DNA from: a virus
Strand: one strand, 5' to 3'
Virus record (IMG/VR): IMGVR_UViG_3300042892_003815
Location: 64,001 to 128,000 of that record
Length of the DNA stretch: 64,000 nt
The notes beneath the pieces were generated by a model. It was not told the DNA's origin, did no database searches, and saw only the letters and a program-made list of their open reading frames with translations. Both the position numbers and the translations under genes were made by a program. Of this stretch, positions 1,943-64,000 are shown in pieces (the first letter of the stretch is position 1; each line of letters opens with the position of its first letter).

Positions 1943-2683
1943 TTATTCAAATTGTTTATCATAAGCATATCTTTTAAGTTTCATAACTTTTTCAATATAC
2001 CCATTACGTCTTAATAGTTTGAAAACTAAATTACCTAATGAAAGTTCACCACCTTCACTATCTAAACCACTTTTTCTGTAGTTTTTTATTTTCTCCCAAA
2101 CTTTTTTAATCTTTTCACTAAATTGTTCATATTTATCCTCGTCTACTTCATCTTCTAAGTCATCAACTAACATCATTACTGACTTACCTTTCTCTCTAAT
2201 TTCCTCATCATCTGGTGTAAAATCAATTTTCTCTGGTTTTACAATCCATTTATTATTAAGTAGTGAGAACATACCAGATGCCTTATGATCTTCTGAGACA
2301 TCTTGTATATAAACTTCTACTTCATAACCTTTTATTTTAATATCATGATCCTTATTAAAGTTATTCTTTGCCGCATCTACATACTTTTTAACTAATTCAA
2401 TATCTTCACTTACGTCATTGAAGTTTATTAAGATATGTAAATCATAATCAGAATATTTTTCTGACCAGTTATAGTTTGATAATGAACCTGTTAGAACAAC
2501 ATCTTTAACATCTACTTTTAAATCAGTAGAATTATAAAAGTCTTGTGCTATTCTCAATAAATCTTCTCTAACTTCTTGATCAAGTTCAAAATCTGTCCAT
2601 AGTTTAGGATTCAACTCATCTTTTAAATGAAATGATTTTACTGGCTCAAAATCAGCTTGTACAAACTCAAAATATTTCTTCAT
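1943..2683 (-). CDS. Pol-beta superfamily nucleotidyltransferase with capsid-targeting-like leader
   Basis: LTGS...SDYDLHI (GS + DxD) and a later VEVYIQD strand; N-terminus MKKYFEF; TAAATATATA 4 nt upstream. Confidence 0.75.
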   Translation of the reverse strand: MKKYFEFVQADFEPVKSFHLKDELNPKLWTDFELDQEVREDLLRIAQDFYNSTDLKVDVKDVVLTGSLSNYNWSEKYSDYDLHILINFNDVSEDIELVKKYVDAAKNNFNKDHDIKIKGYEVEVYIQDVSEDHKASGMFSLLNNKWIVKPEKIDFTPDDEEIREKGKSVMMLVDDLEDEVDEDKYEQFSEKIKKVWEKIKNYRKSGLDSEGGELSLGNLVFKLLRRNGYIEKVMKLKRYAYDKQFE

Positions 2684-2687
2684 AGTG

Positions 2688-2697
2688 TATATATTTA
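2688..2697 (-). promoter_or_regulatory. putative late promoter element (TAAATATATA variant)
   Basis: Variant of the recurrent TAATATATA motif, 4 nt before the ATG at 2683. Confidence 0.5.
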
Positions 2698-2722
2698 ATT
2701 TAACTTTTGGTATCCAGTATTT

Positions 2723-5700
2723 TTAATTATCTAATTGTTTCCAAGCTCCATTCAAATAACAATAAATGTGTTGAGCAGCGCCTACTCCGTAAACCGCAAT
2801 CATACCGTTTACTGGGCTTGACGGAGCCGATGTTGTAGGTGTTAAAACTAATACTTGGTCTATTGTTACTATTCTACTAGCGAAGTCTCCTCCGATTAAA
2901 GGTGTTCCTATAGTATTGGATATATATAATTTATTATTTTCTGCTATTGAGGCAGTTGGACCTGAGTTAAACCCTATATAAACATTATTTGCACCATTTT
3001 CAAGAAAATAACCTGCATTAGATCCAATAGCAGTATTTCCGTTTGCAGTATTATTACGATATAAAGTATTATTACCAATTGCAGTGTTACTTGCCCCGGT
3101 GCTATTTTGTCTTGCCGCAGATACACCAATTGCCGTGTTAAAGGCACCTCCGTTAGTATTTAATAGTGCTTGCATACCAATAGCTGTATTTTGAGATCCA
3201 CTAGTATTTGTTTTTAAAGATTGAAAGCCATATGCTGTATTATAAAGTCCAAACGAGTTATTTGCCGCCAATGATTCTTCTCCAAAAGAGGTATTTCCGC
3301 TAACATTACCTTTACCGTTATTCCAAATAGTTAAATCTGTTGCGTTTGATTCTAACCAAGCTATTGTTGATCCGGTAGCACCAGTTGATCCGGTAGCACC
3401 AGTTGATCCGGTAGCACCAGTTGATCCAGTAGCACCAGTTGATCCAGTAGCACCAGTTGATCCGGTAGCACCAGTTGATCCGGTAGCACCAGTTGATCCG
3501 GTAGCACCAGTTGATCCGGTAGCACCAGTTGATCCAGTAGCACCAGTAGCACCAGTTGATCCGGTAACACCAGTACCTTGAATACCCTGGGGACCGATTG
3601 GACCTTGAGATCCTTGTGCTGCCAATAATGTCCAATTGATATGTGTTATATCTAAATCAGGTGATACTACAGATGCAGTTGAACTAACTGTCGCAACACA
3701 CCACCAAGATGCTGACGCATAACCAACAGCATCATTCATATTATAAAGTGAGTTATTACTCCAAGAACCTTGCCAAGTTAAACCAGAAACACCAACAGGA
3801 CCTTCGATACCTTGTGGTCCTTGTACACCAGAAGTTCCAGAAGAACCTGAAGTACCACTTGTTCCAGGTACACCTGTTTCTCCATTAGCAACCGCAATCC
3901 AATCAAAATTCTCAGCAAACATTTGTGTTGTAACTCTGAACCCTGAAGCAGTCTTATTTGTTATTGCCACATCCGTACCACTATTTGTAATATCGATGGA
4001 GATGGAATAATTTGTAGACCCGAATGGCTGCGCGAAGACAACATCATAGGCAGTACCAACCCATCCTGGGTCAGCTGATGAAACAATTCCAGATTTAGCA
4101 CTTAACCCAGTACCATCCGTACCTGAAGTACCACTTGTTCCACTTGAACCTGATGTTCCACTTGAACCTGATGTTCCACTTGAACCTGATGTTCCAGAAG
4201 AACCACTATCACCTTGTACACCTTGTGCACCCATCGGACCTTGAGATCCTTGTGCTGCTAATAATACCCAATTTATATTTGTTATATCTAAATCAGGTGC
4301 AATCACTGATGCGGTTGAACTAACTGTTGCAACACACCACCAAGATGCTGACGCATAACCAACGGCATCATTCATATTATATAAAGAGTCATTACTCCAA
4401 GGACCTTGCCAACTTAAACCAGAAACACCAACAGGGCCTTCGATACCTTGTGCACCTTGTGCACCAGAAGTTCCAGAGGTTCCAGAGGTTCCAGATGCGG
4501 TTGATCCTGGTGATGAAGTACCTGCAATTGCTTCTATCCATTGAAATAAACCGGTTCCATCATTAGAAAGAACCCAACTTGCGGTTGCGGTATTTACGGA
4601 ATTGATATGATCTATTGTTAGGCTATTATCTAAAACTATCGCAGAAACAGAAGGTCCATTTACAGTCATCTCTGATGATAACTGAATAGTATCCGTTGTG
4701 TTAAAAGTAATAGTATTGGTTAAGTCGACTAAAACCAACTCACCTGCCATTAAATTATTAAAACTTCCACTATTTACAAGATTTAACGCACCATTTGCTA
4801 TAATAACATGACCATAATTTTCTATTGATCCTTCTATTGTTAAGTCACCATATACCCAGTATTGTTCGTTTTCTTGAACAGTAATAACTTCACCGGGCGC
4901 TATATAATATTGTATATTATATGCATCTGATGGAAAAGGATTTGTCATTTGAAAATAAGTTCCATCATAAGTTAAACTATAAACACCATTTACTGTAATA
5001 TCATTTGAAATTAAATCTCTTAAACCTGTTTTGGTTGCAATTTTAATATCTTTATACCCTAATCCATTTATATTAATTGATGCAGTACCATTATTTACCG
5101 TACTAAACTTAGTTAAAAATATTAAATCATTACTATATTCATTGAATATTGGATCTGTGCTTACTGAATAAGTTACTCCACTTATTGATGTCGGTTCAAT
5201 ATAAAATACTTGTGTTACTTTTTCTTTTTTCCATACACCAGTAGGAAAATCACCTTCATATTTATACATTGAATTATTGTCACTATCTGTTCTAACAGTC
5301 ATACCATTAGTTGGTATAGTAGTATTCCAATATCCTGAAACATTAGCATCATATTCTACAATTATTGTACCATATGAGTAAATATCCCAGTTTGTACCTG
5401 ATGGAAGTAAACCTGGGATAGTTCCAAGTAAATATCTATCACCCGTATTAGGTTCTAATGTAGGTTCAACACTTAAAATTGAAATTACAGAGTCAACCCA
5501 TTCAGTTGATGAATTTTTATCTATATTAGTTTTTACCCAATTTGAGTTATCTAATATATCTGCATTTGTATAATCATATGTAAGTTGATATGTACCGTTA
5601 AGATCAGAATCAGAATCATTATAAACAGTTACTAACATACCCCACTGTCTTCTTGGAAGTGGTATAACTATCATTTCATCAAATGTTTCATATCCATGAA

Positions 5701-5800
5701 TACCTCCTTTTATCTCATTACTATATGCTGATGCAATTTGATCTAATGAGTCATTCGGACGAATTGCTGCTGATACTAAAGTTCCTATATTTTGTGACAT
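2723..5800 (-). CDS. collagen-like tail fibre / virion fibre protein
   Basis: Gly-X-Y tracts (GATGST, GTSGSS, GPQG), duplicated ~80-aa WQG.W module, C-terminal NTAxG beta-helix repeats, DUF2793-like segment (GDRYLLG...W). Confidence 0.75.
3366..3572. repeat. 18-nt coding tandem repeat (GTTGATCCRGTAGCACCA, ~10 copies)
   Basis: Contiguous units without spacers; encodes (TGSTGA)n on the minus strand. Confidence 0.95.
3601..4475. repeat. ~240-nt internal duplication in fibre gene (3601-3840 and ~4237-4475)
   Basis: Both copies encode [12 protein letters not shown](S/T)[53 protein letters not shown]. Confidence 0.9.
4140..4193. repeat. 18-nt coding tandem repeat (CCACTTGAACCTGATGTT x3)
   Basis: Encodes GTSGSS repeats of the fibre protein. 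Confidence 0.9.
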
Positions 5801-5816
5801 TTATATTCTTATTTTT

Positions 5817-63034: not shown

Positions 63035-63035
63035 C

Positions 63036-63064
63036 AAAAAAAGACCCAAATTGGGTCTTTTTTT
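63036..63064. terminator. bidirectional terminator
   Basis: A7-GACCCA-AAT-TGGGTC-T7. Confidence 0.85.
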
Positions 63065-63082
63065 ATTGTTTATATTTTATTA

Positions 63083-63658
63083 TTATTTACCTTGTTTTTT
63101 TAATATAGCTTTTTGCATTGCCTCAGGAAGTTTTTTCTGTCCAGCAGTTAAACCTTTTTTAGGTTCTTCTTTCTTATCATCTTTAGCGTCTTTAGCAGCT
63201 TTTTTCATAGTTTCTTTTTTATCACCATCTTTATCTAAATCTAAGAAATCTGGTTTACCTTTTCCACCTTTTTTATCATCTTTTCCACCTTTTTTAGCTT
63301 TTTGTTTATCTAAATAAGCTTGGAATCCTGCATTGATTTTTTTCTTTTCAACGATTTCTTCGTCACCCCATCTTCTGATTCTGTTTTCTTCTTGTGAATC
63401 TTCTTCCTCTTCTTCCTCTTCAGAGTGACCGTAGTCATCTTCTTCTTCACCTAATTCATTAGTTTCCTCATCTGCATCTTCACAGCCACAAGGTGTTCCA
63501 TTACAAAACTCACAATTTTGATCATCAAAGTCTTCATCGTTGAATTCGTTACCTTCTTCGCCAAACTTAACCACGTCACTTTCACGTTCTTGTGCGAATC
63601 TACCGAACTTATCCTCTTCTTCAAAACTAAAGTTCTCAAATTTTTTAATGTGTTTCAT
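63083..63658 (-). CDS. acidic/basic low-complexity protein with capsid-targeting-like leader
   Basis: MKHIKKFENF leader; CEFCNGTPCGC; PDFLDLDKDGDKKE (DxDxDG); Lys-rich tail. Confidence 0.7.
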   Translation of the reverse strand: MKHIKKFENFSFEEEDKFGRFAQERESDVVKFGEEGNEFNDEDFDDQNCEFCNGTPCGCEDADEETNELGEEEDDYGHSEEEEEEEDSQEENRIRRWGDEEIVEKKKINAGFQAYLDKQKAKKGGKDDKKGGKGKPDFLDLDKDGDKKETMKKAAKDAKDDKKEEPKKGLTAGQKKLPEAMQKAILKKQGK

Positions 63659-63742
63659 ATTATTTTAAATCTATTTTTAATTATATATTAAATATTTATA
63701 TCACTTTTATCGTTTTTATAATTTTTTTTTAATATATATGAT

Positions 63743-64000
63743 ATGAAAATACAGAAATTTCAACAATATTCACTTCAAGACTCAATGGCATTAGATTTTA
63801 TCAATTCATTTGATGGTTTAATCACTGAATCTGATGAAACCGAATATAAAAAAGTACAAAAGCGAGTTATAAGTGATTTGAGATTAAATGGAAATTTATC
63901 TTTAACATTTGGTACAGGTATCAAAGCATTTTATCCAGTAGTAGATAAACTAATGACTAATATGAAAATTAGCTCTATTGATATTACTGCAGACAAAGTA
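63743..64000 (+). CDS. partial ORF (runs off the window) with leader-like N-terminus
   Basis: MKIQKFQQY...LITES; TAATATATA at 63730-63738, 4 nt before the ATG. Confidence 0.65.
   Translation, partial: MKIQKFQQYSLQDSMALDFINSFDGLITESDETEYKKVQKRVISDLRLNGNLSLTFGTGIKAFYPVVDKLMTNMKISSIDITADKV

Follow-up and report, generated by a model that had tools for sequence, protein, structure and literature searches.

Phage T4 has three internal proteins (IPs) plus Alt, and the capsid targeting sequence (CTS) of the internal proteins was reportedly described by Mullaney and Black in 1996. This sequence, MKTYQEFIAE, is carried by IPI, IPII and IPIII (PMC9026906, PMC3012670); targeting depends on residues 4 and 7 (Y4 and F7) and processing on residues 8 and 10, and the T4 scaffold protein gp22 is cut by gp21 after L/I-x-E (PMC9026906). 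In phiKZ, 201phi2-1 and SPN3US, N-terminal propeptides of ejection and inner-body proteins are cut by a gp21-related protease after x-x-Glu (PMC5694885, PMC7411985). Crowded heads have precedents, with about 50 proteins in SPN3US (PMC7411985) and 104 detected in particles of phage G (PMC12484599). Here we describe a short N-terminal leader shared by unrelated genes (tagged genes hereafter) in a window of 64,000 nucleotides, which corresponds to bases 64,001-128,000 of the 190,950-bp IMG/VR virus record IMGVR_UViG_3300042892_003815, and we compare it with these systems.

A leader under peptide-level selection

A shared leader of 10-12 residues opens about one quarter of the genes of the fragment. 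A strict two-class regular expression matched 32-34 of the 200 gene starts in the record; on the controls it matched none of the 884 internal Met and 37 of the 6642 Met of a six-frame translation, while random N-termini generated from the genome's own N-terminal composition gave a mean of 0.3-0.4 matches and a maximum of five in 2000 trials. An earlier note on this DNA had claimed such a leader for about 20 unrelated genes, and the enrichment over randomised N-termini is borne out by these counts. Of the 71 genes in the window, the strict pattern fits 19, and inspection by eye accepts 21-23; for the whole record, a hand-extended list holds 44 tagged genes and a loose structural definition gives 48. 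Two classes can be told apart. Class A, in about 32-36 genes, reads MKYLKxFE[SN]F, position 4 being hydrophobic and position 7 aromatic; class B, in 8-9 genes, reads MIKKYNQF[IL]xE and is the class A core shifted by one residue.

That the tagged genes are unrelated was confirmed by BLASTP among the 44 proteins stripped of their first 15 residues, which joined one family of three members and nothing else. Simple paralogy was therefore rejected as the cause of the shared leader. The tagged proteins are mostly small, soluble and fast-evolving, two of the 44 having a hydrophobic segment, and their mature parts have a median length of 193 amino acids (aa) and a median pI of 4.9. As in the T4 CTS, the tag is a peptide of about ten residues with which small, fast-evolving and otherwise unrelated proteins begin; unlike in T4, where three or four genes carry it, about 44-50 of 200 genes are tagged here, and a 642-kb relative has at least 69.

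The source is an uncultured marine T4-type megaphage of about 0.6 Mb, related to LR756502; the record has a G+C content of 29.5% and an estimated completeness of one-third. Megablast with 6.8 kb of the window found no match among GenBank phages, and the relatives were located through comparison of the capsid protein. This protein shares 74% identity with its counterpart in LR756502.1 (642 kb) and 52% with that in LR756501.1 (735 kb), both huge uncultured phages of the Al-Shayeb 2020 deposit; identity is about 30% with those of the Prevotella Lak phages and 27% with that of the cultured Tenacibaculum phage PTm1.

Codons 2-10 of the leader follow the same synonymous preferences as the gene bodies (AAA 86% against 81%, TTT 84% against 78%), and on this ordinary codon use a nucleotide-level element was rejected as the main cause of the pattern. 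For a 205-aa tagged protein (record 41357-41974), 1237 homologues were found in databases, and 118 full-length orthologues with 67-97% identity were compared. Their leaders have M at position 1, K/R at 2, Y/H/F at 3, I/L at 4, K at 5, F/Y at 7, E at 8 (110 of the 118), N/S/D at 9 and F/Y/H at 10; I/L at position 4 and F/Y at position 7 are found in 117-118 sequences. Position 6 and the linker at 11-14 are hypervariable, with entropies of 2.5-2.8 bits where the body averages 0.8, so that the leader consists of 10 residues followed by a variable linker of about four. Orthologue pairs between the source genome and LR756502 likewise keep the pattern with changed residues, for example MKHLRIFDNF and MKYIKTYENH. 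An AlphaFold2 model based on the 118-orthologue alignment gave the body a mean confidence score (pLDDT) of 84.5, while residues 1-11 scored below 50, lay outside the fold and formed no secondary structure; were the leader helical, its conserved residues 3/4, 7 and 10 would share one face. Unremarkable codon use, together with a pattern that persists in the 118 orthologues despite the free variation of position 6 and the linker, shows that selection acts at the level of the peptide. The leader is thus real, lineage-wide, under peptide-level selection and placed on unrelated proteins.

Head genes, putative cleavage sites and a promoter-like motif

Just upstream of the window lie genes for a gp20-like portal (phrog_213), a protease-scaffold, a gp23-like capsid protein and a gp55-like sigma factor. 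The head-maturation protease is fused to the scaffold in a protein of 739 aa (record 53963-56182, plus strand, outside the window) that matches phrog_207 at E 7e-28 and PF03420, the T4 prohead protease family, at 17.8 bits, which is below cut-off; more than 3600 homologues were found in all, some of which carry PF03420. The scaffold consists of about 12 near-perfect tandem 14-residue repeats, YSEY[LIV]AENLDKNI, which are conserved in LR756501, then four FAE units, and it also has an acidic EGEEH repeat tract; conserved LNES/INES sites stand elsewhere in the 739-aa protein. As in T4, then, a head module of gp20/gp21/gp23 type, a scaffold rich in φ-x-E and a late sigma factor of gp55 type are present, and unlike in T4, protease and scaffold form one polypeptide. 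The sigma gene (124 aa, record 46828-47202, plus strand, outside the window; 85% identical in LR756502) was identified through PHROGs (phrog_234 at E 2.5e-7) and pairwise BLASTP to T4 gp55 (E 0.001); a direct search of the fragment with T4 gp55 gave no match. Directly after the capsid gene, also outside the window, stand two paralogous M28-like peptidases (record 58496-59872 and 60486-61763, plus strand; phrog_4191), one of which just reaches the Peptidase_M28 cut-off, with two small tagged genes interleaved.

The 739-aa protein is dense in [LIVF]xE[SNA] sites, with 22 of them, five of the form φ-N-E-[SN] (3.0 sites per 100 residues, where the proteome has 0.36), and in this the scaffold behaves like T4 gp22. 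The capsid propeptide contains EFHSINEN at residues 37-44 (I-N-E-N at 41-44), with the equivalents MNEN in LR756501 and INEN in PTm1. Many leaders end in the same type of motif, as in LINE/S, KINE/E, FINE/A, SINE/A, KLNE/S, LFE/S and IKE/S (the slash follows the Glu). Within residues 4-18, [LIVF]xE[SNA] occurs in 15 of 44 tagged and 15 of 156 untagged proteins and in 4% of internal windows; for φNE[SN] the values are 5 of 44, 1 of 156 and 0.4%. When residues 4-25 were taken, 35 of 44 tagged against 67 of 156 untagged proteins had [LIVF]xE.

A promoter-like motif, TTTAATATATA, precedes 80 of the 200 genes and ends either 2-6 or 17-30 nucleotides (nt) 5' of the ATG. In the window, examples are found upstream of 53625-54608 (minus strand), 57756 (plus strand) and 63083-63658 (minus strand). 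The motif stands at the head of the units for sheath, portal, protease-capsid, baseplate and fibre, and it is missing or off-peak before the DNA polymerase halves, primase, helicases, clamp loader, DnaB-like helicase and ribonucleotide reductase. Because a gp55-like sigma factor is present, and by analogy with T4 TATAAATA, we read TTTAATATATA as the probable late promoter. Tagged genes have their own copy in 27-28 of 44 cases, against about one-third of the other genes, and the short spacing of 2-6 nt is seen in 15 of the 36 genes of class A, compared with 16 of the 156 without a tag. Such spacing would imply leaderless or near-leaderless mRNAs, provided that the motif acts as a -10 element of the T4 late type.

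The last point raises the question of whether the leader is a feature of expression: with a promoter 2-6 nt from the ATG and a near-leaderless mRNA, the first codons or the nascent peptide could be tuned for efficient initiation in a host that does without Shine-Dalgarno pairing. The excess of short spacing before class A genes fits this, as does the fact that no Shine-Dalgarno-like sequence is visible upstream of the genes. However, leaders use synonymous codons as the gene bodies do, and what is conserved are amino-acid classes (F/Y7, E8, F/Y/H10), whereas the codons vary among orthologues. Moreover, the short spacing is missing from 21 of the 36 genes of class A, the 16 untagged genes that have it bear no leader, and genes internal to operons bear the leader too. 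We consider this explanation very improbable.

Promoter motif and leader often form one unit of about 35 nt, and comparison with LR756502 shows that tagged genes are often variable insertions between conserved core genes; the IP genes of T4 are likewise variable insertions between core genes. In LR756502, tandem arrays of 450-800-bp genes, each with a class A leader (MKHLK...), lie at 10.3-15.6, 21.6-25.2 and 418.4-420.9 kb. Such an arrangement would also be expected of a relic, a cassette of promoter and first codons that was copied or recombined before new cargo genes and has no common function today. A relic should decay, though, whereas the pattern is kept in the 118 orthologues as neighbouring positions drift, and also between the source genome and LR756502 with the residues changed. 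This makes a functionless relic very improbable; an origin of the leader in a cassette would be compatible with a functional tag.

Capsid targeting weighed against another address

We tentatively read the leader as an address tag of the T4 capsid-targeting type. Of the mechanisms considered for this uncultured phage it is the best supported by sequence, and we would put its chances a little short of even. It is favoured because T4-type head genes are present, the scaffold is dense in φ-x-E sites and the same motif recurs in the capsid propeptide and at leader ends. The conserved positions 4 and 7, the selection on the peptide, the unfolded leader of the model, the promoter-like motif before most tagged genes, their place as variable insertions between core genes and the precedents for crowded heads also count in its favour. 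The amphipathic leader, with an aromatic face (positions 3/4, 7 and 10) and a polar face (K2, K5 and E8), would dock late proteins on the scaffolding core of the prohead; the scaffold-fused gp21-family protease would cleave the scaffold, the capsid propeptide and some or all of the leaders behind φ-x-Glu; and the cargo would be retained in the head and enter the cell together with the DNA. Scaffold binding, cleavage, packaging and injection of the tagged proteins are all deduced steps.

The resemblance to the T4 tag is uneven. Class A has hydrophobic or aromatic residues at positions 4 and 7 as the CTS does, a match of pattern only, and carries E8 and an aromatic residue at position 10 instead of I8/E10. 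Class B shares both the targeting and the processing determinants ([IL]-x-E), shifted by one residue. A large head is a trait in common with the giant phages phiKZ, 201phi2-1 and SPN3US, which in their case holds dozens of internal proteins. Their propeptides, unlike the present leaders, are mostly longer than 100 residues and have no common short motif, 8-19 proteins being processed, and these phages belong to a different lineage, without a gp23-like capsid match. In one precedent, SPN3US gp47, a hydrophobic segment directly follows the propeptide.

Several observations weigh against capsid targeting. The T4-type site [LI]xE is found within residues 4-25 in only 23 of 44 leaders, the share among untagged N-termini being 31%. 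In class A, Glu8 is preceded by F/Y at P2 while P3 is free (118 orthologues), which departs from the T4 rule, and the leader of the 205-aa core protein has no Glu at all in the source genome. The cargo is acidic (see the median pI above), unlike the basic IPII and IPIII of T4. A position-specific scoring matrix (PSSM) of the leader, run on T4, ranked IPI 17th of 1580 Met sites and left IPII and IPIII outside the top 25. To our knowledge, one tagged gene in four to five far exceeds any known case. Finally, class A leaders and ClpP are both present or both absent in five of six genomes (a small sample, the exception being Lak-A2), which would suit a different receptor just as well.

The (I/L)-x-E end that the earlier note gives for the T4 tag is present in most class B leaders and in about half of the leaders overall. 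Its interpretation of the leader as a T4-type tag is partly supported: a real leader on unrelated proteins, T4-type head genes, the 4/7 spacing and the class B end speak for it, whereas the leader PSSM misses IPII and IPIII. Sequence homology to the T4 tag was dropped, because the PSSM did not recover IPII and IPIII; its top T4 matches were a uvsW.1-type open reading frame (ORF) and Mob endonucleases. The loose pattern M[KR]xφxx[FY] fits 13 T4 Met sites, including those of ipI, ipII, ipIII, 61.1 and gene 38. The product of 61.1 (54 aa; NC_000866 19130, minus strand) starts with MKTFKEFIKED, near the IPI start MKTFKEF; we do not know of gp61.1 as a listed head protein.

The co-occurrence with ClpP needs closer consideration. 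The window encodes a phage ClpP at 25076-25735 (plus strand; PF00574, E 8e-68), which is not tagged in the strict sense, and class A leaders and ClpP thus occur together in the source genome. At the DNA level the class A pattern was found 69 times in LR756502 (reversed control 1), 14 times in LR756500 and once in T4, and not at all in LR756501, Lak-A2, MA9V-1 and PTm1. ClpP is present in three copies in LR756502 and two each in LR756500 and Lak-A2, and there is none in LR756501 or PTm1; LR756501 thus has neither, although its capsid protein is closer than that of LR756500. Instead, LR756501 uses class B-like leaders, with 17 class B matches plus variants in which a Y-[KN]-x-F-x-x-E core lies at varying distances from the Met. 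In Lak-A2 (positions 470001-520000, TAG read as Q) the recurrent N-termini are MNKxIKKLLE[NS]LFDD and the related ...K(K)xLYESIM, and given this different leader, a shared leader may be a general habit of this phage group.

The leader might therefore address another machine and serve as a signal for degradation, unfolding or modification, or as a docking peptide. It could, for example, be an N-terminal degron by which a Clp unfoldase feeds the phage ClpP and limits the lifetime of accessory proteins, classes A and B possibly being two signals. N-terminal recognition signals of Clp are short, contain basic and hydrophobic residues and occur on unrelated substrates, and class A has no T4-type site where T4 has its own. 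Yet the six related genomes are few and not independent, and in Lak ClpP occurs without class A leaders. No Clp unfoldase or adaptor turned up, although no dedicated unfoldase search was made, and the fragment has no radical-SAM gene that would speak for modification. We know of no Clp signal with the sequence of this leader, and of none on a quarter of a genome's genes. Such an address would also leave unexplained both the match of leader ends to the scaffold and capsid-propeptide motif and the link to the late promoter, and we regard it as unlikely.

If capsid targeting is right, its consequences are considerable. It is possible, although we find it doubtful at this breadth, that marine 0.6-Mb megaphages of Bacteroidota load about 100 different proteins, one quarter of their coding capacity, into the capsid by means of one short peptide and inject a ready-made proteome of enzymes and counter-defence proteins. 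Injected cargo would then be predictable from sequence across thousands of metagenomic phage genomes. A head-loading signal would turn the mass of orphan genes (ORFans) of a widespread megaphage clade, represented in metagenomes by more than 1200 homologues of one tagged protein and more than 3600 of the scaffold-protease, into one functional class of proteins delivered with the DNA. The T4 CTS principle would scale by more than one order of magnitude and offer a compact tag for packaging foreign proteins. Should the leader address ClpP or another machine instead, it would represent a previously undescribed phage-wide code for protein sorting or turnover. In the paper library that was searched, no megaphage paper mentioning a propeptide, capsid targeting or an N-terminal motif was found.

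Tagged genes of the window and other features

The 21 N-terminal peptides listed in the earlier note were all found in the sequence. The positions it gave are start codons on the plus strand; on the minus strand they are the low, 3' ends of the ORFs, with the leader at the high end, which affects 1943, 11087, 13759, 14025, 14993, 18441, 22337, 23918, 53625 and 63083. For ORF 55264-55767, position 55725 is a genuine start inside the frame.

Closest to the T4 register (Y4, F7) is the leader MKKYFEFVQADFE of a 246-aa protein (1943-2683, minus strand) that matches phrog_36119, of unknown function, and whose LR756502 orthologue also keeps a leader. Class B leaders open proteins of 195 aa (8936-9523, plus; MIKKFENFDDNSEEF), 358 aa (11087-12163, minus; MISKYNQFLINE/S, with an I-N-E site), 323 aa (14025-14996, minus; MIKNWNQFIRE/N), 180 aa (19981-20523, plus; MIKKYNQFVDDKINE/E) and 385 aa (22337-23494, minus; MLLKFNNFIKE/S). 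Class A is represented by an 88-aa protein (13759-14025, minus; MKYLNLFEEF) and by a 365-aa protein (23918-25015, minus; MKYLKLFNES), which belongs to the sole paralogue family and has a weak PNK/HAD-like C-terminus. In a 128-aa protein (14993-15379, minus; MKYLDSYKLFES) the core Y-K-x-F-E-S lies further from the Met, and a 242-aa protein (18441-19169, minus) starts with MKWIKLNES, containing L-N-E-S.

On the far side of the window, the plus strand encodes tagged proteins of 252 aa (44329-45087; MKHLRSINE/A), 494 aa (45121-46605; MKNVKQFNKFDLIKE/E, with a weak DHH match below cut-off), 468 aa (49544-50950; MRYIKLNEN), 159 aa (50947-51426; MRYLKLYEEL) and 250 aa (51426-52178; MKHLKRFNEELSPSTY). 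A 327-aa protein on the minus strand (53625-54608; MNNLHKYNDFLFE/S) has a hydrophobic segment at residues 103-122, followed by a GH108 lysozyme domain. From the internal start mentioned above, 153 aa are read (55264-55725, minus; MKYLKLYQKFFED). In a 113-aa protein (57756-58097, plus) the leader MKHLKTFESHSTNEEL is followed by a mildly hydrophobic stretch. The next protein, of 226 aa (58193-58873, plus; MRYLKTFESHSINEEEG), belongs to a family whose FE[SN]xS-INEE survives even where homologues share 39-45% identity; this motif is similar to EFHSINEN of the capsid propeptide. The last two are a 191-aa protein (63083-63658, minus; MKHIKKFENFSFEEED) and one with a weaker match, MKIQKFQQY (63743-64000, plus), which runs off the window and has 260 aa in the full record.

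Two further candidates lie beyond these 21. A 988-aa protein at 28355-31321 (plus) is a weak one, starting with MSKIQIFIDNFE (I4, F7, I8); the other, of 715 aa at 31328-33475 (plus), starts with MSKIQEFIDAWN and has a C-terminal lysozyme-like domain (phrog_181; GH19 below cut-off). Because these two large proteins of the baseplate block start with MSKIQ[EI]FID, close to MKTYQEFIAE, the earlier statement that this block lacks the leader is not quite right.

Searches of 20 tagged window proteins against Pfam and PHROGs gave a sole match above cut-off, the GH108 lysozyme at 53625-54608. The remaining matches were the weak DHH and PNK/HAD-like ones and three PHROGs without an assigned function (one marginal); otherwise the proteins are ORFans in these databases. 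The cargo of enzymes proposed earlier is thus retained for lysozyme, is weak for DHH and PNK/HAD, and was not recovered by Pfam or PHROGs for the nucleotidyltransferase, nuclease, protease and GNAT; with one match above cut-off among 20 proteins, the list cannot be confirmed. Foldseek with the tagged 205-aa protein returned weak cysteine-hydrolase/isochorismatase-like matches (best E 0.03).

Some other features of the record deserve mention. ORFs made of short peptide repeats (STAVESTVVV; HPVHLV-type) at window 7680-7898 (minus) and record 188.6-190.6 kb are probably translated simple DNA repeats and not genes. A secreted window protein that starts with MRKIYLLLLFITGISFAQ can be read as having a Bacteroidota-style signal. 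The family B DNA polymerase is apparently split into two parts 41 kb apart, with window 16976-18406 (plus) matching positions 477-839 of phrog_262 and window 59490-61016 (plus) matching positions 67-500.

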